A DNA stretch of 39,434 bases from Halocafeteria seosinensis (lineage: Eukaryota): contig LVLI01000614.1 in assembly GCA_001687465.1 (NCBI GenBank), positions 1 through 39,434 of the forward strand, written 5' to 3'. The notes beneath the pieces were generated by a model. It ran no database searches. It saw nothing but the letters and a program-made list of their open reading frames with translations, and was not told where the DNA came from. Shown here piece after piece: positions 3,801-27,900 of the stretch. Within the stretch, counting starts at the first letter, position 1; each line of letters begins with the position of its first letter. A program made the position numbers and the translations under genes.

Positions 3801-3855
3801 GATGAAACGGGCTCTGTCTTTGCCTGCCAACATTGAGGATAAAAAGACCAAGTAG
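802..3855 (+). CDS. ATG11: Autophagy protein ATG11 / RB1CC1 (FIP200) homologue, ~993 aa; join(802..905,978..3855)
   Basis: ATG at 802. The 72-nt intron 906-977 (GTAAGT...CTAAT...TACAG) joins in frame (SIDAA|FEALQEY). N-terminal ubiquitin-like segment (GISADDQLLL), a long helical ATG17-like region with E-RRR..F motifs, and a C-terminal ATG11/Claw signature (ISIRDFHVGDRMLF...HYYLS...YIV...NPYHLVCGTVYHIV). Confidence 0.88.
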
Positions 3856-3858
3856 AGG

Positions 3859-6800
3859 TTATAATGATCCACTGGAGTCTGATCCATTTAGGATACGTTT
3901 GACAACTTCTTGCAGCTTGCGAGGGCGGAATTCTGCAGAACCTCGGTCATGATCGCTGTAATTTTGAAGGACGTTCCCCTTAATTTCGCTAACATCTCTC
4001 TTTGTCCACTGTAGTTCACTGTTGCGCACTTTACGGAGAAGTGCTAGCTCCCTGTCTAGGACCTCATTAGTATCATAAGATGAAAATGGACGTCTCTTCG
4101 AGTTTTCTTTGGGCCTACCCCCGGTACTACGCATAGCTATTTTTAGTCTAGCCTGCAATGTTCTCGCGAACACTCTCCTCCACCGGTTTACAATATGGGA
4201 TTTCTGAATACGTTGAACAGCCACTACTCGGCTCCTATCATCTTGCCCTTCTTTGCGAACGTACGTGCTCCAACCCTCGAACGCCGCCCGTAGCTGTCGT
4301 TTTCTGACTATCGCCGTCAGCTGGGTTTCAGCGTGCTGTATCCGTTTCGCTCGCAGGTGTTTCTCTTTCCACGTTCGAAAGAACTTTTTCTGAATACGTC
4401 TTCGATCAGCTGACACTGTAAGCCACAGCTGGAACCATCCTAGAAGCGCTCGCACTTTAGTATTTCTTTCCCAGTATACACGGGCCCTTTTTTTGCACCG
4501 ATTTATGTACGCATACTTAGTTGCAAATTGATGCCATTGCGCCCAAGCTTGCAATTTTCTCTGTAATTCCAACGTCCTCGTTGCATTACAAACGATGGAT
4601 CGAGCACGTCGCTGGTTCGACGTTATGGTCCTGAGCATGGAGAATGATGGAAGCAATCGAGCTTTAACAGCAGTTTCACTCCCTTCCGCCAGCAAGGGTT
4701 CCGTGAGATGAGACAGAAATAATTGAGCGATTCTCAGTCTATCCGGCTCCTCAAAGTAATTGGAAGTTCGTTTGTGGATGTGCTGGCGAGAACACTGAAG
4801 TGCTTTTATTCGCTCCTGACGATTTCGGCGAACAAAATCGCATCTCCGGTGTAACCGCCGAAAGGCGAATGATCGGCGAAGCGAGTGGGCTCTTTCCTCT
4901 AATATTTGCATCCGCTGTTGCGAGTAGAGTGCAATCCTCCATAGCTTCAACAATTTGCGTTTCGCGCGGTAGGAAAAGACTGATTCAGCCTTCTCGAGAA
5001 GTTGTCTCTCAGATCTCAGAAGAAGAGCTTGAGAATTCCATTGATGCATAAGCTTGCGCAGTCTATGTACTCGAGTACTAGTCTGCAGATAAAGACATTT
5101 CGTAGCGAGGTCTTTAGACTTTTCGGTAAACTGTCTCCATTTGGAAAATGCATGTCTCAACAATCGCTCAGTCCTCACAACTTGGGAGTATCGATACAGC
5201 TTTTGCTCGTAAGTAAACATTCTAAAGCATTGGAAAACCTGCTTCTTCCTTCGAATTTCCTGTTTTGACCACACCAAACCTATCATTCGCGTCCTGACAA
5301 GCTGAAGTTCGTCAAACCTTTGTCGCCAAATACCGAACGCAGAACTAACAGTCTTTCTATCACGATCCCGCGAAATCAATAACTTCCGGTCTGACAGCCA
5401 TTTCATTTGCCTCGTATGATCTCCCCATGAGCGAACAATTCTGCCACATAGTTGCATGGACAACTTGCTCTGAAACGACCGTGCGATCTTCCGGGAACGA
5501 TAGCCCCTGTACAGTTGCCCAAAGAGGGTGTCGCGGCGACGAGTTAAGATCCTATCACGCAGCAATTGCGTTTTGCCACGAATTATTCTCATCCTTCTAC
5601 GGTACTCCGTCCATTTCTTCAAGCTGTGTGATAATCGGATGCTCTCCGACTTGCATCTGAATGCATGGAATCTTTTTTTCATCTCTTTCTTGCTAGCAGA
5701 GTAACTGACGAGTCGAGAAAATACTTGTTTCTTGACGCGATGTAGATATAAACCGACCGCGGACTCAGTAAGCCTCTTCCACTGAGAACGGGTTCTAGCC
5801 ATAGTCTTCCACTGTATCAATGAGCGGCGAGCTCTTCTCTGCAGGTTCCTCGTATTGCATGTAATTTGTTGTTTTCTCAACCACCTTAAACGATGCAGGA
5901 ACTCCTGCCACTGTCGCACTCCGTGACGCAGTCGTCTGACAGTATACAAGCTATCAGCCGCATAAAACATTCGCCTTTTTGTGTGAGCCTTCGCGGCATT
6001 CGTCAGTAACATCCTTATACCAGCGTTGTACCGATGACGGCGAATGAGGGATCGTATCCTGTTGGTCTTGTGTTCCAGCATCTTGGAATCATAGTTTGCA
6101 TCCATCCAACCAGTAAACGCCCTTCGCAGCAAATTCCTGCGAAACACTGAGTCAGCTATTTGCTCCTTTCGCACCCTTATCCGATCTTCTATGACGAACT
6201 CCTTCCAGCGGTACCAGTAAGTTCTACAGGATCGCCCGTTCAGTATACGGGAAACTTTATTGAGGGCAAACTTACGAACAAATATCTGTCTGGTGAAAGA
6301 TTTCCATTCTTGGTAAGCGTTGAACAATACCTTTTGATCAGCATATTCTCTAAAGCGGTTGCACTGATACTCAAGCAACTGATGTCTTAACGTCGCGCCT
6401 CTCCAGTAGTGCCAATAACGCTCCAACTGATGCCGATGTCTGTAGGCCACTATCTCCCGCTGTAAACCCGACAACCGGCCTTTATGGGCAGAGTACGCCC
6501 AGAACCCATTGAACATTTTTTTGAGTAATACAAATTTTCGCACACCTTGCAACTTTTGGACAGCCTGCTTTCGCAATCTTCCAATGTGAGCCTGCTCATG
6601 CATACGTCTAAAATGATTATGTAGTAGCATCATTCTCCGGAATCGTCCAGCGCGCACGAGGAGATTGACCAATTCGTGCTTTTCTGCAATCTTCTGCTTC
6701 CATGTCTGGAAAGCCTTGGATACACGCTGCGTAGCACGGAAAACCCTGGCCTGCCACTTCCGTTTACGGTATTCGTAAGAGGTGAAATTATACATCTTCC

Positions 6801-9651
6801 ATTTGGATATCGCCTTTTTCAGTTTCAGCTTCTTCACCTGAGCTTCAGCTTCCACGAAGTATTCGCGAAAACTACATTGCAGAGAGGCGACTTGCCGCCA
6901 AGCACCAAGGCAAATAACAGAGGTGAACTTGTCCCGTACGCGCTGTAACGTGAGTACCGCGGCCCGCTTTTTCAGCTTCTTTGAGGTTGCGAAGGTACTC
7001 CAAGTGAACAGACACGCACGAAGTACATAATCGGACCATTCTTTTTCCTTCCTTTTCTTTTCTACTCTTTCTTGCCGAGCTATTTCCGTAGAGTACTTCC
7101 AGTTCTTAACAGACTTGGACAACACGCTCTTCAAGTGGAAAATGGCAGCTATCTCAGCCCTTGCGCGGAAGACATGTATGCGATGTAGGCGGAGTCGCCA
7201 GTCTCCTATATATTTCTTTAGCAATTTGGTACAGTGCCTGTGTTCTGTGATTGCCGACGCCTCTAGGATTCGTCGTTCTTTTAGCGCATGTTCCTGAATT
7301 CGTACGAAGGCTTGACCTTTCATTCTCCTAGCTACAAGGACGACAAAGCAGTCGATGACGTGTCCATAGCGTCGGGATTCATGTAGCATCGACTGTAGCC
7401 TCGCGAATGTACGTCTTAGAACACGCCATCGCCAAATGCGATCTACCGTCGCAGATATGGATCGACGCTTAGCAACTGTCACGCTGTACCGATACCAAGT
7501 GCAGAGTGCATTGCGACTCACAAAGCGAAAAATCAGCATTCTAAAACGCTGCTTTTGATACGCAACCCAGCTCCATTCTCGTAAAGCTCGTCGCGATTTC
7601 TTCTCAGCAAGCATATTGTAGAGTTGCGAAGCTTGGCGCTCATGCTCCCCGACTATGCCCTGCCAGTTGTGGAACGTGGACCGCACAACCATAGACCTAT
7701 CAACCGAGCGAATTACACGCACAAGGGTTTCCCTGGCAGCATGCTTCCGAAGATGCGTATTGTACCATGAGTCAAGAATGATTCGTTTCCGGCGATTCTC
7801 AATATACCCCTTTACGGCACGTAATTGTTGTTTCTGAGCAGCACGCATTGAAGCATTTTCTGTCCATCTATGAAAGAGAACATCCTCTGCAATCATAACC
7901 AAGTGTCGCCTGGCTCGGCGAAGAATTTGTTTTGAGCGATAAAGAGACCAAAAATCGGTGAAAATACGCCGCTTAAAGGTAAGCTCTGTCTTCTGCTTTA
8001 TAGTACCGGCACTTCTCTGAAGACGCCGTCGCTCCCGGCAAAACCGTTTCCATGCCAGAAGACACTGTCCCAAGAGATTCACAGAAAACGATTCTTGCAT
8101 CTGAGAAACCGCGTTAAGAACACTTGTACACCTCCTCCAGACTCGAAAAAGAGCCCGTGACCTCTGCCAGTTAAGCCGCTCCCGAAGATCGGACCCCATA
8201 TTTTCGACATAGTACCTCCTCCTCCATAACGACCAAGCCCAACTAAGGAGCCGTCCAGCTTTGTTATTGCTGACATTCCAAGCCGCATTTCTTTCTTGAG
8301 AACGCTTTTGAGCAAGCAACGACCACTGATAGACAAAGTTACGTAAGAACTCCGTTTCCCGAGGTGGGCCGCTCTTCGTCCCTAGAGATTCCACCGTCGA
8401 CTGCCCAGGAGAGGGGGTGCTTGAGGTGCCATATTCTGGGCCCTGTGGTTGTGTAGTCGGCTGAGGATTGAAGGTAAACGAGACTGTACGCGTATGTGGA
8501 GGCTGGTTCTGGATCGTGCTTGGGTCATGAAAGGGGAGTTCATCTGGGGTATCAGCAGATATGGGATTTCTTGACTCAGCAGGTGAATTTCTCGGTGATA
8601 TAGCCACTTGAAGACCACGGCACGTCCTCAAAACACTCCTATTGGGTCCGATGTTCGTTCCTCCATCTGTGTCATAGTCGCTTTGTTGCCTTACAGCAGA
8701 GTAGTCATTGTATGCATACCGCGTACTACTTGAGACAGAGGAACGCTGATCAGCTTGTGGAGCTACGTTCTGATGCCGGCCATCTGTGCTCGAGAGTGCA
8801 GGTTGCTGTTGATACCGCTGCATAGTATCTGTGGTGGCGTAAGCCCACAGCGGAGGCTGCTGTTCGTTAGTCCCAGCTATTTCTTCGCTTGGTCCAAGCC
8901 TTCGAGCAAGCTCGTAGACCGGTACCTGTATTGGGTGGGGAAGTTGTTGGTACCAGACGTTTCCGGATGCCCACATAGGGGGCTGATGCGATAGCCTATC
9001 CGCAGAGTAATTCCCTTGTCTTTCACCATTAGCGAATGCATTTGTTGCTACACTATTATTCCTATCTTCTTGCTGCACTGGCACCATCGGCGCCGCTAGA
9101 TAATCTAGTGCAGTTTCTTCTTCCATGCCATAGCTATCGGTACCAGTTAAAGCGGGTTCATGGGAACGACTACCTTTCCGCGGCTCGAAACATTCCGCAA
9201 TCGTTTCTTCGTGACGATTCTCAGCTCCCATCCGCCGATAGTGCTCTTCCATAATTTCTCGAGTACCATCGCTCATACTACCTTCCTCATCGGAACCTTC
9301 CAGGGAGACGGTGGAAGTCGAGCTTGCATGGGTTCCTTCAGGAAAGTTGCCGTTCCACCCAGAATCATTCCCATACAGCGTTCCACCTCCATAAGCCGAA
9401 AATACTGTTTCAGAAGCAGTGGATAACGGCTGCTGGTCTCCTAATGAAGCTTGTAATGGTCCCAAAGCCTGATTGATCTGTTGCCGGAACTCCTGCTGTT
9501 TAGACTGCTTAAATGTCTCCACCTCCGAGACTAGATCCCCAAACAAGCTTCGTTTGCCTTTTTCATGTCGTTTAGAGCGAGATTCATCAGGTTTCCTGCT
9601 GGAATAGGTCCTGTATCCTCTGGTAGAGCGCTCCATATCCCCGTAGCCCAT
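3859..9651 (-). CDS. Sfi1-repeat centrin-binding (centriole/basal body) protein, 1930 aa, intronless
   Basis: 5.8-kb open frame. A ~430-aa low-complexity N-terminus is followed by ~1400 aa of basic helical repeats of the form L..aF..W+ (RALFRVWRR, QCLLAWKRF, KAFQTWKQ, RAFTGWMD, HAFSKWRQ). The spacings counted are 29, 29 and 33 aa, typical of Sfi1 repeats. Confidence 0.8.
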   Translation of the reverse strand: MGYGDMERSTRGYRTYSSRKPDESRSKRHEKGKRSLFGDLVSEVETFKQSKQQEFRQQINQALGPLQASLGDQQPLSTASETVFSAYGGGTLYGNDSGWNGNFPEGTHASSTSTVSLEGSDEEGSMSDGTREIMEEHYRRMGAENRHEETIAECFEPRKGSRSHEPALTGTDSYGMEEETALDYLAAPMVPVQQEDRNNSVATNAFANGERQGNYSADRLSHQPPMWASGNVWYQQLPHPIQVPVYELARRLGPSEEIAGTNEQQPPLWAYATTDTMQRYQQQPALSSTDGRHQNVAPQADQRSSVSSSTRYAYNDYSAVRQQSDYDTDGGTNIGPNRSVLRTCRGLQVAISPRNSPAESRNPISADTPDELPFHDPSTIQNQPPHTRTVSFTFNPQPTTQPQGPEYGTSSTPSPGQSTVESLGTKSGPPRETEFLRNFVYQWSLLAQKRSQERNAAWNVSNNKAGRLLSWAWSLWRRRYYVENMGSDLRERLNWQRSRALFRVWRRCTSVLNAVSQMQESFSVNLLGQCLLAWKRFCRERRRLQRSAGTIKQKTELTFKRRIFTDFWSLYRSKQILRRARRHLVMIAEDVLFHRWTENASMRAAQKQQLRAVKGYIENRRKRIILDSWYNTHLRKHAARETLVRVIRSVDRSMVVRSTFHNWQGIVGEHERQASQLYNMLAEKKSRRALREWSWVAYQKQRFRMLIFRFVSRNALCTWYRYSVTVAKRRSISATVDRIWRWRVLRRTFARLQSMLHESRRYGHVIDCFVVLVARRMKGQAFVRIQEHALKERRILEASAITEHRHCTKLLKKYIGDWRLRLHRIHVFRARAEIAAIFHLKSVLSKSVKNWKYSTEIARQERVEKKRKEKEWSDYVLRACLFTWSTFATSKKLKKRAAVLTLQRVRDKFTSVICLGAWRQVASLQCSFREYFVEAEAQVKKLKLKKAISKWKMYNFTSYEYRKRKWQARVFRATQRVSKAFQTWKQKIAEKHELVNLLVRAGRFRRMMLLHNHFRRMHEQAHIGRLRKQAVQKLQGVRKFVLLKKMFNGFWAYSAHKGRLSGLQREIVAYRHRHQLERYWHYWRGATLRHQLLEYQCNRFREYADQKVLFNAYQEWKSFTRQIFVRKFALNKVSRILNGRSCRTYWYRWKEFVIEDRIRVRKEQIADSVFRRNLLRRAFTGWMDANYDSKMLEHKTNRIRSLIRRHRYNAGIRMLLTNAAKAHTKRRMFYAADSLYTVRRLRHGVRQWQEFLHRLRWLRKQQITCNTRNLQRRARRSLIQWKTMARTRSQWKRLTESAVGLYLHRVKKQVFSRLVSYSASKKEMKKRFHAFRCKSESIRLSHSLKKWTEYRRRMRIIRGKTQLLRDRILTRRRDTLFGQLYRGYRSRKIARSFQSKLSMQLCGRIVRSWGDHTRQMKWLSDRKLLISRDRDRKTVSSAFGIWRQRFDELQLVRTRMIGLVWSKQEIRRKKQVFQCFRMFTYEQKLYRYSQVVRTERLLRHAFSKWRQFTEKSKDLATKCLYLQTSTRVHRLRKLMHQWNSQALLLRSERQLLEKAESVFSYRAKRKLLKLWRIALYSQQRMQILEERAHSLRRSFAFRRLHRRCDFVRRNRQERIKALQCSRQHIHKRTSNYFEEPDRLRIAQLFLSHLTEPLLAEGSETAVKARLLPSFSMLRTITSNQRRARSIVCNATRTLELQRKLQAWAQWHQFATKYAYINRCKKRARVYWERNTKVRALLGWFQLWLTVSADRRRIQKKFFRTWKEKHLRAKRIQHAETQLTAIVRKRQLRAAFEGWSTYVRKEGQDDRSRVVAVQRIQKSHIVNRWRRVFARTLQARLKIAMRSTGGRPKENSKRRPFSSYDTNEVLDRELALLRKVRNSELQWTKRDVSEIKGNVLQNYSDHDRGSAEFRPRKLQEVVKRILNGSDSSGSL

Positions 9652-9866
9652 GGCAGATTCTCCGTCTCTTCAAACAGCTCCTGCATCCATGACAGCCCGT
9701 TCCCTCCAAATCAGCCCACACAAACAATACCTAGAGACATATTGAAACATTATAAAACAAAAATTGGAATGAAAACACATCGGGAAACCTTCCAAATCGG
9801 CCTCTAAAACTGATGGCCTCCATTGCGTAGCTGGAATTCAAACAGTTAACGGGCGTCCTTGTAGAT

Positions 9867-10045: not shown

Positions 10046-12342
10046 ATGTCCCAATCCGGCTCCGGTGGCCCTGATTCGGGACATAGAGGCCATAAACGAG
10101 ATACAGATGAGATACCCGAAGGGATGGGTCCCAAGGGGACCTCCTACAGTATCATCCCTGAGCGCATACGCGGGCGATTGGCTGATGCGTGGGCACAAAG
10201 AGCGAGAAACATGCCCCAGGAGCAGCAGCCTCAGCAGCTTCGAATCAACAAAATCTACGCTTATGACGAAAATGGGTACGTTTTGACGGATTTTTTTTTT
10301 CATGCTCAGCACATCGAGCATGACCTGCCGATTCGGACTGTGCATTTTCCTTGAGCTCGGTTGTGTGTATGGATGCAGGAGCCCGAAAATCCGGACACGG
10401 CCGGAAGTACTTCGAGCCTTATTGCATGATATAAATGGATATACTCGCGGTATCGATAGGACTACAGCGACCTCTTCCATGCTCCAGGAAGTTATGAACA
10501 GGCTCTCAGAGACAGGCGCATTCACGGATGTGAATCTCCGACTCACATCCCCCCAAGGGTCGTCGAGAGACCGTCGGCAATCGCATCAATACGGGGAGAG
10601 GATCCCTCAAGCAGATTTATGTCTAGGACTCACGGAGAGATCATATTCTCTCCAAACAGGAGTATCAGGAACTCCACAAGGGAGTCTAGAAGCTGTAAGT
10701 CGTTCTAGCCATCATGAAGAGCACATGGACGTGGTTTCAACATGTTTGAATTGTTTGTTTGGGTGCGCAGTACACCGAAGGGTCATTGGTCAATATGTTG
10801 GGCAGTTTAGAGACTATAACCTGCAAGGTGATGGCTGCGAAGAATGCTGCTATTAGGGCAGAATGGGGACTAAGTGAATCGGGGTCCACCAAGTCGAAGG
10901 ACAAAGAGGATTCTTTCAGTAGCATAGCTTCACCGTCGGTGGAGTTAGGATTTTCTAAACCTACGTTCCAAGGTACCCGCTGGGGCATTAAGGCCAATGC
11001 CCGAATGGATGAAGACGACTTTACACACCGAAGCCGTTTTGTTAATAAAGTACGTCATGCTGTGACTTCTACGTTCGTTTTAGCCCGTCTAATACTCATT
11101 CTCTGACGTTCTTGTCACAGGTCACTGAAGCTGACGCTTCATTCGTCTCTCCTAACAAGCGACATAGCATTGGGATGTTCTCTTCGTGGAGAAATCCGGT
11201 TTATCATAGAGCTCCAAAACGCCATTTCAAAGCGGATGCGCCTCCAGAGTAAGCTGCTTTCATTCGCAGTGTGCGCCTTCTTTCATTTTTCATCACTTTC
11301 TTGCAGAGTGGCAAAATCTTGCTCAGCAAGTTCTGCATCCGGATTCCGGTATATGTATGAGAATAATCAACGTCAAGGTGACAGTGCACCCGTTTCAGGA
11401 TCATATTCGCGACTCTTGGCTGAGTTTGCCCATCCTGGTGTAGCTGGTGACTGCCGATTCGTGCGTTTTGAGAATACGTACGAACGGATCGTCTCGTGGG
11501 GTCGTCGCATGCCTGATACCGGGTACGAGAAGCCCTTGTCGAAAAGCCGTTACAATTCCCCTGCAGATAAATCTGCTCCGGGCACGAATCTATCTCCGCA
11601 ACCACATCCAAGCGAATCTAACATACTGTCAGGATGGCTCAGCGAGCCTCAGAAGGAAACTTCAGAAAGAAGGAGAAAGGGCAAAGAAAAGTTTACACTA
11701 TCCCATCAAATATCTGGATGGCTATCACCCGGTATTGTAAGTCTGCGCTGTGTTCTCGCATCGATACGAGTTGAAAGTCACTCTTGGAATGCATTGACTA
11801 CTCTGCAGACTGCACGAGCAGAGTGGAAGGGCGGTTTACTGCTTTCTCCCAAACTCTTAGATTACCTACGAGGTGATCCATCGGCAGCGAACTCCAAAAG
11901 CTCGTTCATCTGTGATAGATACTTTTTAGGCGCTCCTGCTTTCCGAGGGTTTACTTTAGCCGGAATCGGTCCCTCGTCGACAATGGGTTCTGGGCAAAGA
12001 GTTGCTCTAGGCGGGGATTTGATGGGTTTATTTACAGCCAGACTACAACTACCGCCTCCTATACCTTCCATTACACTTGCTAATGCTGGCATGAGACTTC
12101 AGCTGTTTGCCAGTTGTGGTACTCTATTGAGCGATGATCAACTAGTGGCGGCTTGCAGGACTACCTCATTAACTCGCGAGTCTTTGACATCGCTGGCAAA
12201 GACGCATGGACGCGCTTCGGCAGGAATAGGAATATGGCTTCCCATAGGGCAAGCCGCCGGATTGGAAGCCACATGGACATTGTGGCAGCACTCTCACCCT
12301 TCAGACAGCCGCGCCTCCTTCTCCTTGGGTGTCTCCCAGTAG
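10046..12342 (+). CDS. SAM50: Omp85-family outer-membrane beta-barrel, SAM50-like, ~638 aa; join(10046..10275,10379..10694,10771..11049,11121..11248,11307..11736,11809..12342)
   Basis: Five GT-AG introns (103, 76, 71, 58, 72 nt) restore one frame. POTRA-like segment (KIRTRPEVL...RLSETGAFTDV), NMLGSLET, DRYFLGAPAFRGFTLAGIGP (loop-6 RGF motif), ALGGD, RASAGIGI and a C-terminal beta-strand FSLGV. Confidence 0.82.
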
Positions 12343-12434: not shown

Positions 12435-12739
12435 TCAATCTTCCTTGGGCTTTGGCTGCTGCGCTGACGTCTCCTCATTACCAGAGGTCATGGTCCATTT
12501 CGCCAACGAGTACACCAAGCACGGTAAGCACGGACAGCAGATGATCCAGAATCTGCAAGCGCGTCCGTGTAGCGGCAGTGAAAAAATCAATGGCACTGGC
12601 TCGAAGGGGGCCACTTGACTTACCCTTGTATGGCTTCCACTTTAAGGTAGGTCTCAAGAACGTAAAACAGGACCGAGATGGCTGTAAAGGCCGCGTACGC
12701 GCACGATAAGATGCCGTAATTTAATTCAGAGGTCTCCAT
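12435..12739 (-). CDS. Uncharacterised 77-aa two-transmembrane microprotein; join(12739..12624,12552..12435)
   Basis: ATG at 12739 and a 71-nt intron 12623-12553 (GTAAGT...TTGCAG). Spliced product: METSELNYGILSCAYAAFTAISVLFYVLETYLKVEAIQGFWIICCPCLPCLVYSLAKWTMTSGNEETSAQQPKPKED*. Two hydrophobic stretches and a polar tail. Confidence 0.65.
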
Positions 12740-13181
12740 ATTGTGTGTCTGTGAGGGTGTATTTATTGAGTATCGACCACTCAAAGAGGCTAGCAACAAT
12801 CCATGTAGTTCAAGTGGATAGTACCATTCTGACCATTCCACCATCACCATCTGGTGGAAGCGAAAAAGAGACTAGCAAGCACAAAATATATGGGCAATGG
12901 GGCTGTACATTTTTTTAGATACACAAAAAGATGGTAACTACTGTAAGCTACAATATGAATATAAAACATCCCCTCCTTCCCCAAAACAAAAACTTATTTG
13001 GCAAGCCGAGCGTTGCGTACTTGGTAATACTTCCAGGGCATTATGTGTGCATGAATCATACGGAGAACTGAACTGGGATACAGCTTCCAAACAACAGGTG
13101 TTCGCTTAAATCTGTTGGTGTGCTTTTTGTGTCACAAATTGGACCGTACAATTTGGACGAGATGCAGATTTTTATTAGCGA

Positions 13182-16100
13182 TCAATCAATAACGTCCTCG
13201 TGTTTGTTTGTTTTGGTCTGCTCTTGTCTTGCCTTCTCCAGCTCTTTGTCTTCCACTTCTGAAAACGTATCGCATAAGACACCGATAAATAGATTCGTGA
13301 ATAGCAGACCATTCACAATGACAAAGAGCACGAAGTAGGTGATCGGCACCAAGGAGTTTCGTGCATCCATAGCCGCGTACGACACAACGTGCCACTGCTC
13401 CCCTTCCATTATTAGGAATAAAGTTGTTAAAGCAGTGGAAAAGCTATCAAACGTGGCAGGTCCCAAATCGTAGGCGTCGTCACTTAGTCGCCGGAATTGT
13501 CCACCATACAACCAAACTCCGAAGACGGCAAAAACGTACATAGTAAGAAGGATAAGAGCGCAAATCGGAGCAAATGTAGAAGCTCTCTTGAGCAAACCGA
13601 AAACAAGTCTCCTAGTCGAGTGAACCACAGACAGCAACCGTAGCACTGGGAACGTTACTGCTAGTCTCATACCCACATTGACGGCAAACGTGTACCTATC
13701 TTCATCTTGGCGGATGTTGTCAGTGTGTTGGGCAACTCCAATGAAGCTTGTACCGATGATCATCATCAACGAAACCATGATAACAGCAAAATCGAACCTA
13801 TTTGCCGATATCTGATAGTTGTTTCTTGCATCTATGTCAGCTTCTTCGTCCTCTTCCGCATCATCTAGATCCATAAGCGAGGAAGCTCGACCAGGGGGAC
13901 GAGAAACCCGCCTACTGGACTTAGCTCCCCCATTTAGAGCCAAGGAGGACACGCTTTGCCTCTGTAACCACCCTTCGCCTAATTTTAAACGTTTTTTCAT
14001 CTTTCCGAACCAGAAGCGTTTCCATCCACCAAGCATGTGGAAGAACACCTCCGCTACCTGGAGAAACAAAAACCCACCTAGAATAGGGTCGGCATAGGAC
14101 GTCAAGCGAGTTCCCAGCAACATAATAGTCCAAGTGTGAAGCAGTACCGTCTGCAAAATATACAAGGTTGGAACAGAGACCATGACCGAAAACAACAAAG
14201 CAACTTACTATAAGTAATGCTATATCATATCGGACTAGCATCTTATTATCAAAGAATCGCCTAAGCCACACTCGACAAGCAGCAAGACCAGGTAAACTTC
14301 CGCATCGACTGTTTTTCTTGACTTTTGCTGTTAGAAATTCCCCGCGATACTTCCCGCTTTCAAAGTTGAAACCTCTGTAACGGTGCCGACGAAGAGAGCG
14401 ATTATAGAAGCTACTTTTAGAAAGAGTGAATGACTTTGGCAACTTACAGCTTTACCATCAGATATTCACACACATAAACAAACTCTGTGGATGTCAGTTT
14501 GTCGTTTAGTCCGACGTAGTGACTCTTCTTTATTCCGCAAGAGTGAAAGAATGGTTCGTATTCAGTCCGCTCAATTATTCCGTTCGCATTAAGATCTAGT
14601 AGAGAGAAAGCTACCAAAGGCGCAAATCTTCTCCTCGCAGTGAGACTCCGAGACCGGACATTGTAACACTCAGTATAACGTGATTGGAAGCTAACTAGCA
14701 GCAGCGATCCCAAAATGAACATTCCTGCGAGAGAAATAATAATGAAATACGGTCGGTAAATTGTACCAACGAAACCTCCGTCGTCTGTTGGATCCTCATT
14801 GGGGTATGTGATATCGTCATAGTTCTCCCCAGTAGCAGCCAGAATGAATATTGTGTACCAGCTAGATTGAAAGTTCGAAAAACCTCTGCCCAGCCCAGGT
14901 AAAGCAAAATCATCTAGTTCGTGTAAACGCAACCCTGGGTTCGCTCCTTCAACGGCAGTGTTTTTTACTTGCTGATCTAGTTGTCTGATGTTCTCTGTTT
15001 CATCTAGTCCTGGAGGAGTATCATCGCCGGTGAAAGGAATTGTATCACTGACTTCCGGACCTTCTCCGCGTGTAGGGGCACTTCCTAGGTCCGTATAGTC
15101 ACTGAATAGGGCAATCGAAACAGCAGCTACTATTATCGTAAATGTAATGAACAAGGTAAACGTTCGTCTAGCGAGAAGAATAGTACTTCCTAGAGCTTGA
15201 AGAGATCGCCTCACAGGAGACACTCGCATCACCACCAAAAAGGGTCGAATAAGAGCTGTCAGGGGCAGCAACGTGGCAGAGCGTCCTGTTCTGTAGTCGA
15301 CTCCAAGCCTTACAAGAAAGTCAATAGATAGTATCAACAGCATCAGTGATCGCACGACTACTAGAATCCTGTACGATGGAGCTTTTGTATTCGAAGTTCT
15401 CGGTGGTTTGGCCACGCTATGCTCTCCACGCTTGGGAGCGGCAGCCGAATAGCGGTCACGTTGGCGCATGGCGGCTGTTACGTCGTATAACGAATAATAG
15501 TTCTTCCGTATGCCTTTGAGATATAGTCCCAAAGCATTGTCAGTCACAAGTACGAACAGGATAAATAACTCTACAAGTAAAACCTGCGCCCGTAGCTTCC
15601 GCACTGCCTCGACGGGCTCATCAGCAGACAGTGGTTGTGCCCCGAACGCCGACTTGCTTTCAACAGACCAGCCAGTCCTGCCATCTACACTTGTATCCAC
15701 AGGAAGCTGCTCTTTGCCTTCAAATGCAGCACCGACGTCCACTTCCATATCTTTGCTCGAGCTCTTAGGGGAATCCGCAGGCCACAAAGGGGTTACACCG
15801 TCATCCGACATTGTGCCAACTATAACGGCTCTCTCGAGAGTACCGGTACCGACAACTGTATCGCTCGCCTCGAAAAAGGCTAAACACAAGTAAGCTGCCA
15901 AAGCTAAATATATTAACCCTTTGTACCACCTCGTGGAAATAATACTATGAGCACGCTCAGCGGTCCACCTTCCGAGTTTTTCTAGGTAGACCGCCTCCAA
16001 GGCATGCCTGTCCGATGCATACATATGAATGTATTCCCGAGCCCTACGGAATATCGACAGCTCCCAGTAATATACCTCTTCACTAACAAGCTTAGGTGAA

Positions 16101-19100
16101 CCACCGCCGGCCATAACAGATAACCGAGACTTCCTCTTATTTCCGGTTTGTAGCGGATTCGCTGTTGCATCCACAGTATCCTCTTCTTCGTTAGCTCGTT
16201 TCGAAGCTTGTGGTGTGTCGGACCGCATTCCCCTAGTCTGCGTTCCCGCAAGCACATTAGAAACGTGGTTAGAGTATGACGATTTCCCTCCAAGCAGGTT
16301 TAGACGCCTCCATGTTCGTTCAAGACAGCCCTCGGAGGCTTCCTGTTCCCTATCTTTCAAAGCCTCCTGGATACGAAACAATTGCCAGCAACTCCAACGT
16401 GATCCATAAGCGTAAACATTGGACACAGAACCGTGAATAGCGTGCATGGCAGACTCAATTGCTGGATCTGCTGGTACCATCATTTCATCGGCATCGAGTG
16501 TGACAAGCTCGGATTGGGCGGTACTATCCTTTCCCAGACCTTCTGAGACTGATAAACGAGACTTGGAGGCTATTCTATGCAGGTCATGGTAAGAGGAATC
16601 CCTCGATGCTGTAGATGCCATACTTGCAAGGCGTGCAAAAGTTCGAATTTTGGTTATTCTTCGCTGGTGGTCACTCTGGTTGGCTTCACTCTTGCTTTCA
16701 TTGCCAACCGGCTCAGGTTTCTTGGGAGGTTGAGAGCTCACGCGAATAAAATAAGATCTCAAATCAGTCGTCAATGCTCCAGCCAACAAGGTACAGCAAA
16801 GTAAAGGACCGATAGTTATCAAAAATAGTGCCCACTGCCAACTGTCAGATTCTCGCTTAATGGTGCGCAAGTGAATCAAACCACTAGCGATTACGTCTAA
16901 GTCACTTCCTGTTCGCAATGTCGCAGCCAGAGTGCTGCCTAAAAACTTGTCGAGATTGTCGTCGACGTTGACACTTTGAATGTTCGGGTCACCGACGCAT
17001 GCCCGAATGAGTCCACCTGCTGAGCTGGCACCCCCAACCACATGAGTGTTTGCTACGTACTCGGCAAGCTCCCCAACGCCAATGTAATTCACAGCGTTCG
17101 CCACCGTTGTTTGGATTCTCCCCAATTTTGTGGCAGTTTGGAGAAGAGAGCTGGCATCCTTCCGGTACTGGAAAAGGTCAACGCTTCCAGAAATGGCGAG
17201 CGCGGAAGTACTGATGTAGACATCTTCGCTTTCGGCTGCAAACGCACGCTCAAGACCTACGTTCTCTACGTCTACTTGTAGAGATCCACCATGAGATGCT
17301 CCCAAGAGTAAAGCAGCGGGGCGCAACACAAAGTCGAAATCTTCTTCAGAGTCGTGTGAAACTGCAGCTCCCGTGAAAAATGGGGATGCACTTGTTTTCC
17401 GACTGGGGAATGAAGGGCAGTTACCCGAACAAAGAATATTCTGTAGCCGTACAGCTGCATTCTTTATCACTTCCACCGTTTGATCGCTTTGCGCATCGGC
17501 GACCTCGTCAAACGTTACTGTTAAAGCGCGATCAAAAGATGTTGAAAAGACTAGTAACCTTGCAGCACTAATCTGCAACGAATCAAGGGTATGCATAAGA
17601 CGCAGCGGGCCCTCCGAAACCACCAGTCGATGCGGCTGGTGAAACTGGTCGATATCAAACTCAAACGGTGAGGTGTTGTCAAAAGGACTAAGCGTGCTAA
17701 ACTGCAGTGGCACAGATGCAAGCCTCTCGTTTAGGGTCGACATTGTCATCTCCGCATGAGCCCTCGTAAGCACCAAGTACCCATCTTCACTGAAATGATA
17801 CGTCGCGAGAGTAGCGTTCAGGGGTTGTTTTCCAATTAACCTTGAGTCCTCCAGAGGTTGGAATAGATTACTCCCTATATACCGAGAGAGCGATTCGCTG
17901 ATTTCCACACTATTCTGAGGAATCGGACTTGCGACGAAATAGGATAATGAAAGAGTCCGAGCTCCACTCACAAAACTCCTAGCTTCCGGTGCCACAACCG
18001 AGACGGTATTTGCAGTAAAAAAGCTGCGCGATAATCCCGATCGAGAGGGTGCCCAGAGGGTGTAGGTAGGTGTCCACGTTGCAGAAAACATCGAGTCGAC
18101 AACTTGCGAGGGGAGACTACGTTGGCTACTGATGGAGGAGTCACACAGCTCCGCGGTTTTCTTCCCCGACGTGAAGTTGTTCTTTACAAAGTCGAGCATG
18201 TCAAACCAAGGAAGTTCGGTGATGCTCAGGTCGGAAATGGTCTGCGCTACGGGTTGGAGCCTTGTTAAGACGTTTGAACGCCACCTAGTCAAGAATACTT
18301 TCTGCAATTGAAACACAGGGTCTCGCTGAGTGTTTCTATCTTCTAAAGCCGAAATAGATCGGAGAATCTCTAGTGAGATAACGTCCATCGCTAGACTCAT
18401 CGCCGAACCGTGTGAATGGTAGAGTACGTGTCCATTCACTGCTGCAGGGACTCCCTTACCATCGATGTAGTTGATCCGCATGTTTGATACAGAGGGATAA
18501 ATAACATATTCTGTCACTTTTTCATCTTCCAACTCGTCCTTATCAAGTAGTGATACAGATCCTAATATCGGATCATTCCATGCTGCCGCGAAGGCACTCT
18601 GAAAGTTTGTCCCTGCCTGTTTTGCAGACAAATCTGCCACGAGAGCTTCTACTGAGAGTGCTATAGGTTGCGCGGCAGAATACCCTTCAGCGGCCCAAAT
18701 AGTCGAACCCATGCTGTCACTCCCATGGCCTACCTGCTCCAGAGAATATATGCAGTCAATGTATGCCAGAATAGCTGAGGCTTTCGAAATATGGTAGTCA
18801 ATCCAATTGGGAGGAATGTCAACCAACGTAGTATTGAAGAAGAGTTCCCGTCTTCCAATGGCAGCTACAATGGACGACATATAGGCCGATCTACTGTTTT
18901 GAACATCCTCGATGAATGTGTCCAGAACGGTGTCATTTTCAGCGAAAATAGAAGAAGAGCCGACGAAGTGAACAACCCGCATATCCGCCGCCCCGTTTGT
19001 TGCCAGTTGTCTCAGCGAGGCTTCGTGTTGGGTTGCTCTAGCGCCCATGGTAGCGGCAATTTCAGCCACGCGGACAGAAATGTCATCCGTCGCTGAGCCC

Positions 19101-21421
19101 CAAGTAGACGAAGCGGCGAATGTCAAGAACATTGTCAACGCAAATGTACCCAGCATGATGCCTATGGTATGCGGGCGTAGTCCTCCCAATACTGCGTCAT
19201 CACCAGTTTGACCATCACCTATATTACCCGATTCCACCTTCTTCGCAGACGTAGTGGAGTGGGAGGCTTCAAAGAATCCTTGCATCCAACGAATCACTTT
19301 GTAGTCTGAGGAATGGTCCCGAGGGTATGTCATCACCCTGATATGCAAGATCGCCACAGCACTCAAAGCCATGGCCGAAAGCGTTAGCACTATGCCAAGG
19401 GCCATTTGCGGGCGCAAGTAACGAACTATCCGTGACCGTGGAGTGGACACAAATACACCCCATGAAGGAAGGAAGAATTCCTTTGCTTCGAGTGCAGAAT
19501 CGCTCGGTGTATTAGGAAGTGCAGCTTCACCAAGTCGAAAGAGCTGAGAAACTTCAGGATCCACAGTCGGGGCAGATATCGGCCACCCCTTTTGAGATCC
19601 AGTATGAAATGCTAAGACAACATCTCCAGGTCCACTGTCGCCGGACCATGGTGATCTGTAGAATGAAGCTGTTGTAGCCCCACTTGGATCTTCGTCCGTA
19701 TCTATGGGCCACCAACTAAGTGAACCAGGGAATACCGGACCGTAGAAGAGAGATTCGACGAATCTGCCTTTCAAATTTTCATGAAGCTCTCCCAGCTTGG
19801 CTTGCGACAACTCCGAAAACTGAGTGAGCTTTTGAGATGAACAAATTTGTAGAGGGCTGTACCCCGGAGGCAGTGGTTCTCCAGGAATAGGCGGAAAAAC
19901 GGACTCGTGTTTCCAACTAGAGCTCTCAACCATGTCTTCCTTCGATTTATCCGAGCCTACTACCGCAGAACCACTCAGTTCAACTATACCAAAGCAGCCT
20001 CCGTCAGCGAGAGAGTAGCCTGACCCCGTAACTGGACTGTCTTTTTCGTCTGCAGCCCCGGAAACTGCCAAAGCTGCCATTACCTTCTCTGAAAAGATAG
20101 CTGTGTCTACCCCAATGCTAACGACGACAAGCGTGTCTTCAGTTTCTAGTCTCCGCAGGACTGGAAGTGTAAACACGGCCACTTGCGACAAGCCAGTCAA
20201 ATGCTCGATGTGTGGAAGCTGTCGGAGCTGCGACGTTGTCAGCACGTGCCAGCGTGGTGACAAGAGTCGTTTCCGAGGTAAGCGCTTCCCGTCCATGAAA
20301 ATTGTGCCGTCGTTGATAAAAGATGTTGAAGACCAAATGTCGTTTCCACATTGCTTTTTGAAGGGATAACATCTGTGGGAGTCAGACTCGCACTCCAACT
20401 GGCCTAGTCTTCCTGCTCGGATCGTTTCTCGTTTTACGCTTTCGTGTGTGAACCCGAGATTCTCAGTTTCGGGTATATCCACCGTTCCCCAATGGTAGTA
20501 GCTTTCACACATAACGCCGTCGTGCGAATTCGTGCAGCATTCTCTCCAGTCTACTTCGGTGCAATTCTGGGCACATCCCGGGAGGCTTTCATAAACTGTA
20601 ATTTGGTTCTTTGTTTCCATCCTCGAAGATGCCCCTAACACTCTTCTGGCGCTAAAATCCCACACGTCCATCCAAATCAATTTTTCATCCTCCGCCACCT
20701 GTTTACCCAGGTAGCTTTTGAAATGCGTCCACTGCCGCTCCACAACGTCACGGAATCCCTTATCGGTAAAATTTTGCAAAGTCATTAGTTGTCCCGTAGA
20801 ATTCATTAGACGGTTGTAGAGCCTGCCAACCATTTGACTTTTAACGGCGTATTCAGTCGCTGTATTTCTAACCTCATTTGTCGCTAACATAGCCGTGCTA
20901 TTCATCATGTTCCCTACAGTCGTATCCACACTGAGCACGCTTCCTGTGTAGCCAATGGCAAACACAAACACAGCCCCACAAAAGATCACTAGAGGTATGA
21001 GAGAGCTCCGATATACTGATGGCGCCCATTTCGGGATATTCTCTCGGTTGCATTTCGATCTGCATAGTGCTAAGCCTGATAGCTTTCCAGCCTTTCGTGC
21101 AACCACTTCCGGTTGCGCTTCATGCATTGAATTCGGTTGCTTTGTTGTTGTAGCAATCTCTTCATTTTTTGTGGATACTCCACCCTTTTCTTTCTTATGA
21201 CTGGATGAGACTGTCTTCCCAGAGAGCTTTGGGTTGTCTCGCTTCTTGCCAGATGAGCTCTCGGTAGGTTCTTCACGTTGCCCTCGAGCATTCATTACCG
21301 TGGTTTCACTTTGGCTCTTTCTCACTGCTGTATCAATAGGGTTAGTTGTCTTTTGGACCTTCTCTCTGTCACTGTTAGGTTTCTTCGAATCGGAAGAGCC
21401 TTTCTCCTTTGTGGTGCTCAT
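13182..21421 (-). CDS. Two-pore-channel (TPC)-like two-repeat cation channel with EF-hand linker and a very large N-terminal extension (4 extra TMs, two putative dCache-like domains), ~2702 aa; join(21421..14448,14374..14209,14150..13182)
   Basis: Two GTAAGT...CAG introns (73 and 58 nt) link three ORFs in frame. Repeat I: S1 ending LAFFE, S4 LTALIRPFLVVMR, pore FSNFQSSWYTIFILAATGENYDDITYP, S6. EF-hand DLNANGIIERTE. Repeat II: NRFDFAVI, S4 VLRLL, pore FDSFSTALTTLFLIMEGEQWHVV, S6 LFTNLFIGVLCDTF. Confidence 0.88.
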
Positions 21422-21799
21422 CACGGCATGCTAAAGAATCTGTATTTAAGTAAGGATAGCCGAAACACTGAGCTTCGCTACTTTGACTCCTTGTGGGAGA
21501 TCGGTATTTTGTCCAATCTCTTCCAAAACTTGCACCCTAGATGAAACTGGAAAACATCGACAACACTGAGCAATGGAACAAGGCGGGTTGACGTTTTCCC
21601 CCGACTCTACCTCTTCCTTTGATACCCTTCAACTGAACTGCCCCGTCACCATCCACTGCAGAGTACTTCTTTCCACCTATCGTTCCCCGTGCACTCACCT
21701 GCCGGCACAAACAGAGGACAAGAGCAAAATACCTACTCTCAGGGACACTCTGTACGCGCTAGAAACAAGGCATAGATTCTGTTCAATGTAGTTTCTTTG

Positions 21800-21853: not shown

Positions 21854-21984
21854 GGGCGCCGAAAAGTTTGTCTCGTTGAAGTTGGTATTTTTTTGGGGGA
21901 GCGAGTTCGATACTGACACCTCCTCGGGAATCAAGTGTTTTGATGCTTTTTCAAAGCGTTCTCGGGTTCATATTCCAAGGAACA

Positions 21985-24900
21985 ATGTTTGGCTCATCGA
22001 ACTACGATGGGGCGTTTCCGCGAGGGGGCGCGCCTGTCGTGGCATCGGCCGTGCCGCGCCCGAAAGCTGCCTCCGCCACCAGTGGTCGAGGGCTCTTTGC
22101 TACCCAGACTCCCATGCATAACAACCGGAAAGCGTCGAAATCAGACAAGCTTGGCCGTTCTGGCTCGAAGAAAAAGAGGTCCCGAGACGATGCGGATGCC
22201 GATGGTGATCAGGATGGCGGATTGGACAGCAAATGGGTCGTGGCGAACCCTGCTCAACTCACCAAAACCCTCACATTCAAGGTATGTTCCATTTTCCAGT
22301 CATTCTTGCATGGTGCTGGTTCATGTACGAACGGTGGTTGAAATTCGTCCTCCGCAGGACCTTCGAACGGGAATGTGCCTTCTGGCGACTGTGAGCAAAG
22401 TCCAAAGCACTGTACTTCATCTTAGCTTGCCCTTCGCCCTGACGGCGAAGTGCTCCTTGGCAGAGGCCATAGATACAGAGAAATACGATTTCCAGTCAAG
22501 TAAATTGCCTTTCCAGGAAGGCGATATTCTCCCCTGCGCCATTGTATCGTTGGAAAAAAGGGAAGAGAGAAGCGTCATATGGGTGTCGTTACGGCCGAGA
22601 CTGGTCAATGCAGGACTCTCGATTGATCAAATAATGGACGGGGAAATTCTGTATGGATGGGTCTCGTCAGCTGAAGACCATGGATATACTATTGAGACGG
22701 GAATCGAGGGTGTCCGGACGTTTCTTCCATATAAGGATAACGACGGCTCGAATGGGCAGGGCACACCTCTTACTATCGGTGGTCCAATTTGGTGCACTGT
22801 CAAGAATGTGAAGCTTGAGAAGAGTGGAGAGCGCACTGTGGATCGAGGACTTCTTACTCTGGAATCTTACAGTCAGGATTTTGAAGGAGGCTCGGGAGTG
22901 GATAAGCTGAGCAAGAAGAAGGCGGACGCAGTCAACACCAAACTGAAGGGCAACTCCATCGCTGCAAGGTTATCAGGTGGACTCGGTTATAAATTGTCAG
23001 GTCTGAAACCTGGTTATCTTGTTAAAGGAGAAGTATATAAAATCGCTAAGACAGGACTGGTGGTGTCGTTTCTTGGTTTTTATCAGGGGTTTATTGGAAT
23101 GCAACATCTTCCCTTTCCTGCTGACGCTATGTGGAAGAAACAGTATACCAAGGGACAGAAAATTTATGCTAGAATAGTGTCAGTGGACACAGTGGAAAAG
23201 CACATAATTCTTAGCTCTGTTCCAAATGTTGTGCGGATGCACAAACCCAATTTCTCGTATGAAATTGGAGACATTATTGACGACGGTAGAGTCCTCAGAG
23301 TCGATCCAAAACTCGGAGTACTGGTATCCGCTGAGAAGAAAGTTTCCCAAGAATCTGGCGAAGCGTACAAAGTACCATGGAACAAGGTTGCCTTTATTCA
23401 TGTTTCTAGGCTCTCAGATAAGCGCGTAGATAATATCGAGCGACTGTACCAGCCCGGTTCAGATATAAAGTGTCGTGTGACGGCGTACTCGTGGATGGAT
23501 GGTATCGTGCTGGCATCGTCCCAGAAAAGCGTGCTAAACTCCCCTATCTTTTCCTACGACGATATACAGCCAGGGATGTTATTGAAGGGCATCCCAACGA
23601 ATGAACTTGAATCCGGGATTGTCTTCACTGTGGGGTCCAAGATCAAAGGGTTTGTCCCCAATATGCATGTTCTCGACAATGTGACGGATGAAAAAAGCCA
23701 CGCGTTGAAAAAATATAAGGAAAAGGTGATTGATCGGGAAGAATACGTTTCAGCTCGGGTTCTTTCAGTTGACAAAACAAAACGCCGTCTTATCCTCACT
23801 ATGAAACCGTCTATGGTCGAAACCTCTTCTCCTATAATAACATCATATTCGCAGGCCTCAGATATACTGACAGTATCGAGCAACAAAACCACTGATGATG
23901 ACAATGACAATGGCGCCATTGTATATGGAGTTGTCGATAAAGTTACGGACGCCGGAATTGTGGTCGCCTTCTTTGGCAACGTTAAAGGGTTGGTGCATAA
24001 GTCCGAGTTAGAAGCTGCCGGTATGGAAGACTTTAAACATGATTTTCGCCGAGGAGAAGTGCTTCGAGTCTCTATCTTGTCCGTGGACCCAGTCCGAGAG
24101 CGCATTAAACTCTCTACCTTGTTAACGAACAATGAACGAGTACACGCAGTAAACGGCAACGCTACCCCCTGTAACGAGGCGCGAGGTGGAATCCAGTCCG
24201 TGCAAGCTGTCGGTGCGGTGGATGGTAATAGACGCTTTCATATTTCTTCCGAGGCTAGCAACCGTATCCGGAAGTCGTCCAAAGCTCATCAAACTAATCC
24301 TCTGATCTCAGAACCTTATTTGCTTGTCTTAAGCAACTCTGAGAGAATATCTGTAGTTCCCATGCAGCACCTTTCAGATCATCCCTATGTTTGCCAAAAA
24401 ATATTTGAAAAATACGTCAGTGATTTAGAAGCAGGAAGGGATGTCGTAATTAGCAGTTGTTTGGCAATTGAACAAAAGAAGTTGTCTGGCACTGTCTTCC
24501 GAGCCCATCAGAAATGGCTGGGACAGGAAGCACGGGATATCCAGATTCTAACAGTAAAGCCTAGCCTTCTTTGGAGCTTCGGAAGGGAAAAACAGCTGAT
24601 TAAGTGTCCACGGCATTTCATGGAACTCAGTCAAGGTGATCTAGTTGTAGGCTATGTCGTCTCAGTTACTGCGTTTGGGGTCTTCGTTCGGTCCATGAAT
24701 GGATGCACGGGCATGGTTCCCCGCAGCTCGCTAATGAGGCAGTCGGAGTCTACGTTGGACTATACAATAGGTCAAAGCATCGTTGCTGTAGTGCAGTCAG
24801 TGGATCAGACTAAAGGTAGCTACGTGCTGACATTGCGCAGCGAACGAGTCTGCCAGAGAATGCGTACTTTGCGCGAGAATCTCTTAAATATGGAAGAGGA

Positions 24901-27900
24901 AAATGACACTGTTTATAACGGTGTCAGTTTCCCGTCCTTGTTTCTTTTGTCAGCCTTGCAAGGAGAAGACGAATTTAGGTGTAAGAAATCCGGCACGGAC
25001 GAGGATGAGCGATCTCAAGATGATGAAGATGACCAAGATGAGGCAGCCGGTGTTTCTGATGTCTTAACACACTCCCATCTTCCTCCGGGTACCGTTGTAC
25101 CAGCCACAGTGGAAGTGTTGCGCGAGTACGGTGCTGTCTGTAGTGTAACAGTTGAGAATAGCACTGTTCCAGCATTTTTGCATAAATCATTTTGTAAAGA
25201 CGATAAGACTATGAGTGTGGGAGCGTCGTTCAAAGCGGAGGTGTTGGATGTTGATGTGGAGAAGGGGATCATCGATATTGCTCCAAATATGTCACCCTCT
25301 AGGGCGCAAGACGTTAAAATAGGTGAGCAGGTAGACTGTACAATTCAACTTGTCCGAAAGAGAGATAAAACTCTACAATACGCTATTACGCGGCTATCTG
25401 GAAAGCACAGTGGATTAGCGATTTTGGCCCTATCTGACTATTATGTCACATCAGATCAGGCGGGGGAAGTATTGCATAGTCCTTTAGAGCAGGGGACTAC
25501 TCTTAAAGCTGTGGTCACCCATGTCCCTGATGGACAACAGCAATGTTTGAATTTTATGCTGTTGAGCCCGTTTCTTGCCGGAACGAAAGAAACCTCTGCC
25601 AGCAACGGTGCTCTCACGTCTGCCTCTAACTTGCGGCCGGGGATGAAAGCCATGGGGGTCGTATTACATGGACTGAAAAGGAAGCATGGAGGCGTAATAT
25701 CTATGCAAGTAAAATTAATGGGTGTGCGAGGACGCTACAAATGCACAGTGCCACTTTCAGAGGTTGTCGATTGCAACTTATCCAAGTTCTATGATTCACC
25801 TGAGTCGGTTCCAGACGAATCTTTGAAGAACGCCCTGAGTATCAAACAAGGTGCAGAGATAGCTGTCAAAATAGTCTCGGTAAAACTGCCTCCATCGAGT
25901 TCGGAGGTGAAGGAAGTATCAATTTATGCGACGACAAAAGAAGCGGATCTTGCGATACAGGAAGAACAGTTGCAACATTTCCGACCTTCTTGGCGTCCTC
26001 TGTATGCGGACGATGATGTGATTCCTGAGATTTATGAACCTGCGCCGATATCGTCTTCGAAGTGTTCCCTTTCTGATGGCACTCAGCTGGGAATCAAGCA
26101 TGATTCTGGAAAGGACGTTCCTGAATCCGCCGATAAGGATGGTATTCCTTGCAATAGTGGACTGAGAGCCGGCGTAGATTTACACTCTGGGAGCCTCGTG
26201 TCAGGCCTCGTTGAACGCGTTGACTCAGAGGGTCTTACAATTGGTTTGGGTAGTGGGATCCGAGGGAAGTGTCATGTGACAGAACTGGGATCATCAGCAG
26301 CAGACGTGGAAGGAACGTTAAAATCGATAAATGTTGGAGACCTCATATCGGTAGCGGTCATCCGACTGAATACTCGTTCCAAGCAACTAGAGGTGTCTTA
26401 TCGCCTTGCGACAACTCTCAGGACAAAGGCGGAAGAGTTTTCAATAGGATTGGCCGAAGTAAAGAACAAGAAGGCAAAAAAGAGTGTTTCAGGACCCAAA
26501 TCAGAAGTCTCACTCAATTTGCTTTGCGAGAAATTGGATGGGTATATTGCGGAGGTGAACGCGCTCTATCCTGGGAAACGAGTGGTCTGTAGGGTTGAAC
26601 GATTACATTCGGCAGTGGAAAATTTGAAGGAAAGCGTGCAAAAGCTGCATGGTAACAGTAAAGAACACACGTATCTCAATCAAGATACAAGACTTCGTGT
26701 TACATTTGGGTCAATGCTTGAAAAATTCGGGTACGTGAATGCAACACATAGTGCGGATCCTTCGGAATGGAAGAGCTTCCCGTTCGAAGAGCATGAAGAT
26801 GACGACATTGTTGACGCTGTCATTCTCAACTGCCCTGCGGAAGAGAACCCCACGGATACCCCATCGATTTCTTCGCTACGAAACCGCTTTGAGCTATCGT
26901 TCCGGGACAGTGCAAAGAAGAAGAGTAGTAAACTTCATAAGTCCAACAGTGCGAAAGAGGATGTGGCAAGCAAGTTTGTGAAATGGTTGACAAAAGAAGA
27001 AAACAACCTGTTCCATGGCATGCGCGAAGAGCAGAAAGGAAAAGGTTTCATTCTTAACACTTCGAAGAAAGGTTGCTTCGTTCAGCTGACACTATTCCAC
27101 GTTGCCCGCATCCTCGTATCTAACCTATCGAATACGTACGTCACTAACGTTGCCCAAGAGTTCCCTCCAGCGAAATTGGTAGTTGGCAACATAACCATGT
27201 TTGACGCGAAAACGAACCGCATCGAAATGTCGCTTAAGGACAAAGACGAAGATACGCCAACTGCTCCCAATTTAAATTGGATAGAACACGGCCAAGTTTT
27301 GGACGGTATCGTGGACTCTGTCACAGAGTTCGGTGCATTCGTAAAACTAATTGATCCGGTCTCTAAGAAGGTTTCGGACGTTAAAGGGCTATGTCATGTA
27401 TCGGAGCTATCTGATAAACCTTTAGAGAGAAGCCGCTTAGCAATCATGGAGCACATTAATCCGTCAGACACTGTCTGTGTATGTGTACTAAAAGTGGACC
27501 GACAGAAGGGCAAAGTTGCCCTCTCGATGAAGCCCTCAATGGTTCAGCAATCACTGCAGAATGCAACTACTTCTCAAAAGCATCGCACTAAAGAAAACGA
27601 AAACGAGAAGCGACTCCCTGACGCGAATGTCATAGACGATCTTAACGAGATCCAAGAAGACGATGGAGATGTCAACATGCTAAACCAAGACACTCAATCC
27701 TCGCGAAGCAATTTGTGGTCCGCGCCTGAATGGACGAAGGATTCGAGAAGCACTCTTGACATTGGCGATATCCAGTCGAAACTCACATTCTCAGGTACAA
27801 ACGATGTGCACGCTGAGGAAAAACGCCGAGCTGCTGGGGAGCAAAACCCCGCGAGCACTTCGGACTACGAGAAGCTTGTAGCTGCTCATCCACAAGACAG

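Follow-up and report, generated by a model that had tools for sequence, protein, structure and literature searches.

We analysed contig LVLI01000614.1 of Halocafeteria seosinensis (assembly GCA_001687465.1; all 39,434 nucleotides, hereafter the window) and found, at 13182-21421 on its reverse strand, a gene for a protein of 16 predicted membrane helices in which a calcium-channel-like two-repeat pore stands behind two large soluble modules. The channel gene is a real, conserved and transcribed single-chain architecture. We put at roughly one half the probability that its product is a likely dimeric, chemically gated calcium channel. More tentatively, we propose that it represents a new ligand-gated class, a one-protein protist chemoreceptor that would carry Cache sensors in one chain with a voltage-insensitive, calcium-selective two-repeat pore.

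The window is eukaryotic, intron-poor and gene-dense. An earlier reading made from the sequence only had placed channel repeat I and the residues upstream of it in one stop-free frame of about 7 kb, and this frame, 14444-21430 (-), contains 2,328 codons without a stop, which from window composition has a chance probability of about 10^-53 (log10 P ~ -53); its first in-frame ATG is at 21421. DNA repeats within the gene are at chance level only. The stretch is present in four public runs, X1 to X4, which come from two samples in one study and of which none is recorded as RNA, and alignment to these contigs and to family members gave the following gene structure:

14448-21421 (-): exon 1, amino acids (aa) 1-2325, a stop-free frame for the N-terminal tail, membrane helices TM1-TM4, modules 1 and 2, the linker, channel repeat I and the EF-hand loop.
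14375-14447 (-): intron 1, 73 nt, GT-AG; joint in contigs of X2 and X3.
14209-14374 (-): exon 2, carrying the linker between the repeats and the first part of repeat II S1; aligns with the relative P0004.
14151-14208 (-): intron 2, 58 nt, GT-AG; joint in one X2 contig.
13182-14150 (-): exon 3, remainder of channel repeat II and C-terminal tail; Ion_trans E 2.7e-28; top PDB match Cav domain II.

Both introns are GT-AG on the gene's own strand, and their removal joins repeat II to the long frame in a coding sequence of 8,109 nt that translates into 2,702 aa without an internal stop. This is a single gene with a single spliced product, as had been supposed. Contigs of X2-X4 also skip canonical introns in neighbouring genes, and we read these runs as transcript-derived because of the four canonical joints in their contigs. 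Three overlapping X2 contigs (15594-16587, 16565-16761 and 16739-17360) pass through S1, the linker, TM4 and the end of module 2 without a joint.

A search with the N-terminal region scored 7,979 candidates and recovered four relatives, each with 38-46% identity across that entire region; along its length, exon 1 is 39-50% identical to them. Two are ENA proteins that end at the intron 1 site and two are EukProt entries, a source suggested earlier for such a search; of these, P0004 is a complete open reading frame of 2,647 aa whose alignment covers aa 76-2698. P0003, P0006 and P0008 all end at the intron 1 site, the position of which looks conserved, and P0011, which covers repeat II and whose contig has the same length as that of P0003 (51,260), may be the last exon of P0003. 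Further fragments were found for module 1 (one) and for the channel (six). A phmmer search with aa 363-1558 against 1.84 billion representatives gave four matches, all known family members, and two JGI metagenome scans with 198 and 133 pattern matches gave none that was confirmed. Invariant columns make up 21% of module 1 and 17% of module 2, against 2% of the N-terminal tail and 10-11% of the cytosolic loops, a contrast indicating constraint on both modules. The single supported split is the same in the trees built for module 1, module 2 and repeat I, which have five rows and little power. Although their accession prefix is the same, the two EukProt entries are only 46-60% identical, which makes paralogs within one organism likely. 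P0005 ends directly past the EF-hand.

Two separate genes were rejected, given the X2 contigs that cross S1 into module 2 and the fusion in four relatives. The broader idea of an artefact, in which mis-assembly or two adjacent genes would be read as a single frame, draws on the fact that no one spliced-run contig covers the whole gene. Parts of exon 1 upstream of 18062 have short contigs or none, which speaks neither for nor against it. Against it stand one unspliced 12.4-kb X1 contig that spans the gene with zero differences (X1 is possibly the window's own source), the overlapping contigs of the spliced runs from S1 into module 2, and the fusion common to four relatives with a complete open reading frame in one. 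We regard this explanation as largely refuted already, with a negligible probability left to it.

Hydropathy of the spliced protein resolves four helices ahead of the channel and twelve inside it. The 4+12 topology of the sequence-only reading and its helix positions for TM1-TM4 and S1 were borne out, and all nine sequence motifs that it quoted are present in the order given. The layout is:

before TM1 (-): N-terminal tail, predicted cytosolic, poorly conserved.
20951-21007 (-): TM1, aa 139-157, by hydropathy.
19406-20944 (-): module 1, aa about 160-672; a domain predicted to be extracytoplasmic and dCache-like, into which a Cys-rich segment is inserted.
19346-19402 (-): TM2, by hydropathy.
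within 19112-19402 (-): loop between TM2 and TM3, short, predicted cytosolic.
19112-19168 (-): TM3, by hydropathy.
16832-19108 (-): module 2, aa about 772-1530; also predicted to be extracytoplasmic, and perhaps derived from Cache with large insertions.
16772-16828 (-): TM4, aa 1532-1550, by hydropathy.
15932-16765 (-): linker from TM4 to S1, about 280 aa, predicted cytosolic, 11% invariant columns.
14690-15919 (-): channel repeat I (S1-S6), Ion_trans E 1.7e-10; S1 peak at 15919-15863.
14561-14596 (-): EF-hand loop, aa 2276-2287, between the repeats; sub-threshold in Pfam.
13275-14223 (-): channel repeat II (S1-S6), interrupted by intron 2.

Basic residues are in excess behind TM2 (four of five proteins) and TM4 (all five) and not behind TM1. 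Nine of the 11 N-glycosylation sequons of the long frame fall inside modules 1 and 2, in agreement with the sequons noted earlier in both soluble regions; two module sequons and eight module cysteines are retained in all five proteins compared. Charge bias, sequons and cysteines together predict a cytosolic N-terminus, modules that are outside or luminal, and a channel in normal orientation, each module being extracytoplasmic and flanked by two membrane helices.

The same features bear on which membrane carries the protein. Animal and plant two-pore channels (TPCs) are endolysosomal or vacuolar, sequons and Cys pairs suit a lumen as well as the outside, and repeat I with the EF-hand is weakly closest to plant TPC1; the modules might then face the lumen of a food vacuole or lysosome, where digestion products would trigger calcium release. 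Repeat II and the filters are more Cav-like, however, and an acidic dileucine signal, the only signal type examined, was not found in the first 140 residues of any of the five proteins. We hold this inner-membrane version of ligand gating to be improbable.

The channel itself consists of two 6-helix repeats in one chain, with 12 hydropathy peaks and an Ion_trans match on each repeat. Repeat I has S4 arginines Arg2059 and Arg2066 and filter residue Glu2199 (14827-14825); the corresponding residues of repeat II are Arg2542, Arg2551 and Glu2631 (13400-13398). Glu2631 aligns with the filter glutamate of Cav1.2 domain II, and Glu2199 also occupies the Cav filter position. Each S4 retains just two arginines, 7 residues apart in repeat I and 9 in repeat II, where no others lie within the helix and no regular series exists; an ordinary voltage-gated TPC was rejected. 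For repeat II the top score is to Cav domain II, with a further match to TPC1 (E 2e-11), although Cav totals profit from four domains; among channels, repeat I together with the EF-hand matches Arabidopsis TPC1 best, and only weakly (E 0.12). The EF-hand is one canonical-looking loop below the Pfam cut-off, and its Pfam matches are sub-threshold in all four full-length relatives (best E 0.00088). Repeat I has two long, acidic outer loops, some positions of which are invariant (S1-S2, 15859-15587, 91 aa; S5-pore, 15100-14876, 75 aa). The four glutamates that a dimer would have, two-arginine S4 helices and an EF-hand loop fit a calcium-permeable channel that is not mainly voltage-gated. On sequence grounds the degenerate S4 helices fit ligand gating without proving it, and these non-voltage, calcium-type features place ligand gating ahead of a built-in auxiliary subunit, considered below.

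Module 1 probably has a dCache-like fold. A structure search with its weak, low-confidence model (predicted local distance difference test, pLDDT) returned bacterial dCache sensors as best matches (TlpC 5wbf, TlpA, Tlp3, McpU and PctA), and Cache-type matches were consistent across searches. A motif-order test with clean controls also supported the dCache order in module 1. Six cysteines are retained in all five proteins, and the pocket-position residues Trp391 and Asp439 in four of the five. For module 2, fold searches returned helices only and no Cache chain among the matches, from a poor model (pLDDT 33, 811 aa). A block test gave p 0.011-0.051 (also summarised as 0.01-0.07) with an order rank of 329 of 5,040; the blocks land on Trp1072, Trp1116, Tyr1120 and Asp/Glu1224, invariant and in dCache order, of which the pocket-position residues Trp1072, Tyr1120 and Asp/Glu1224 are kept in 5/5 proteins. 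We give about even odds that module 2 is Cache-derived, in which case large insertions or an alpha2delta-like nesting would have to account for its 750 residues. The earlier assignment of both modules to dCache is thus upheld moderately for module 1 and only weakly for module 2. No similarity between the two modules was detectable, including by trimmed HHalign (not significant).

At the sequence level no match to Cache was obtained. Pfam found only Ion_trans, with no Cache family for either module or any of the five relatives searched, so that no family database backs the likeness to dCache. A dCache profile built from 41 sequences gave E>0.3 against the modules, and trimmed HHalign of modules against dCache was not significant (full-length rows diluted the signal). 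A PDB sequence search with the long frame gave no matches; profile A1 against PDB gave EF-hand proteins, TPC1 and one chance helical match only. The dCache_1AA amino-acid motif, given in the part of PMC8915833 consulted as Y-x4-R-x-W ... Y ... D, is likewise missing: R-x-W-[YF] and Y-x4-R-x-W are absent from the modules of all five proteins, where Trp, Tyr and acidic positions are the only remnants. A canonical amino-acid sensor was rejected on this basis, and with the motif lost any ligand is unlikely to be a free amino acid in the binding mode already known. The modules might instead be an unrelated alpha/beta ectodomain whose likeness to Cache arises from a weak model and generic strand patterns. 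The absent sequence-level match, the low pLDDT of the models and the helix-only matches of module 2 agree with that explanation; the consistent Cache-type matches of module 1 argue against it, as does the order of motifs, tested in both modules with clean controls, and we think it very improbable.

In the ligand-gated channel that we favour, two subunits would form one pore in which a ring of four glutamates could pass calcium, voltage would not be the main gate, and cytosolic calcium may feed back via the EF-hand. A small molecule, probably not a free amino acid, would bind a putative pocket in one of the two modules. From there the signal might travel to the pore along TM4 and the linker of 280 aa, or through contact between the modules and the outer loops of repeat I, which are enlarged and conserved. 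A likely use would be chemosensing at the cell surface, of prey, nutrient or osmolyte cues. An alternative that we consider unlikely is that Cache-derived modules act as a built-in auxiliary subunit, like alpha2delta or the GPR179 ectodomain, with roles in folding, trafficking, extracellular anchoring or pore tuning while cytosolic calcium or lipid opens the gate. The conserved residues at pocket positions in both modules speak against it, as do the TM-module-TM layout, which is that of bacterial receptors and not of alpha2delta, and the lack of any VWA match in Pfam, from which these proteins are divergent enough that one could be missed.

TPCs are about 750-850 aa long with a short cytosolic N-terminus, and their repeat II S4 carries regularly spaced arginines. 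Our protein resembles Arabidopsis TPC1 (PDB 5dqq, 5e1j, 6e1k; TPC1 chains in PDB have 723-741 aa) in its two 6-helix repeats and in having a candidate EF-hand region between them. It differs in an N-terminal extension of about 1,800 residues that holds four helices and two ectodomains, in a glutamate in both filters, in the large repeat I outer loops, and in a repeat II S4 that is not a voltage-sensing series. The TPCR clade of unicellular eukaryotes (Rahman et al. 2014, as cited in PMC4278181) also comprises two-repeat channels with a Cav-like filter, a likeness drawn at the level of description; the portion of PMC4278181 consulted does not mention a sensor fusion for it.

According to Gumerov et al. 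(PMC8915833), eukaryotic dCache_1 proteins carry a VWA insertion, and those described in the consulted part are kinases, cyclases and alpha2delta/CACHD1, with no channel fusion mentioned there. In the same paper, Cav with alpha2delta/CACHD1 pairs Cache domains with a channel that belongs to this superfamily too. Those domains are part of a subunit of their own, where they are nested and hold an inserted VWA domain; the modules described here, in contrast, lie in the chain of a two-repeat channel, each between its own helix pair, with no VWA detected. Bacterial dCache_1 receptors share the order of helix, long stalk, strands and helix, whereas our modules are 2-3 times longer, reach no profile threshold, do not have the amino-acid motif and lead to a channel instead of a kinase or MCP domain. 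In the parts of the sources consulted, Cache domains are also fused, with MCP-N, to prokaryotic Cys-loop channels, an unrelated pentameric effector (Tasneem et al., PMC549065), and stand on the unrelated 7-helix receptors GPR158/GPR179 (PMC11437087).

As the sequence-only reading had suspected, no Cache-two-pore fusion, nor any voltage-gated superfamily member with a built-in extracytoplasmic small-molecule sensor, was found in the literature searched, covered partly by titles and abstract starts and outside subscription journals. How protists convert chemical cues to calcium signals is largely an open question. If our reading is true, the family would be a divergent branch gone from amino-acid sensing to another ligand, and would unite in one chain what Cav and alpha2delta provide as a pair. 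Modules that gate the pore would make this a new ligand-gated channel design; they would offer a lead on the origin of the Cache-calcium channel partnership seen in alpha2delta, and perhaps a framework for engineering sensors that turn a chemical cue into a calcium signal. Should the modules be no more than auxiliary, this two-pore channel still differs from described TPCs in its 16 helices, its 2,700 residues, its glutamate filters and its degenerate voltage sensors.

Other genes in the window include an autophagy scaffold, ATG11/ATG17-like, at 910-3855 (+); a 1,936-codon frame at 3859-9669 (-) with Trp-/Arg-rich helical repeats and no Pfam match, which may resemble SFI1 centrin-binding proteins; a Sam50-like barrel of the Omp85 family at 11107-12342 (+); and a 398-codon frame at 31887-33083 (+) with no Pfam match. 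The next gene downstream of the channel, 12500-12804 (-), has a 71-nt intron at 12553-12623 in X2-X4. At 28659-29963 (-) lies the C-terminal part of an ETF-ubiquinone oxidoreductase, about 50-56% identical to alphaproteobacterial proteins. An RRP5-like gene with S1 and HAT repeats, 21944-28645 (+), stands head to head with the channel gene with about 500 bp between them and has an intron at about 22280-22355 in X2. At 21914-21956 several X1 contigs branch or end with loose ends, at a short intergenic element common to other places.
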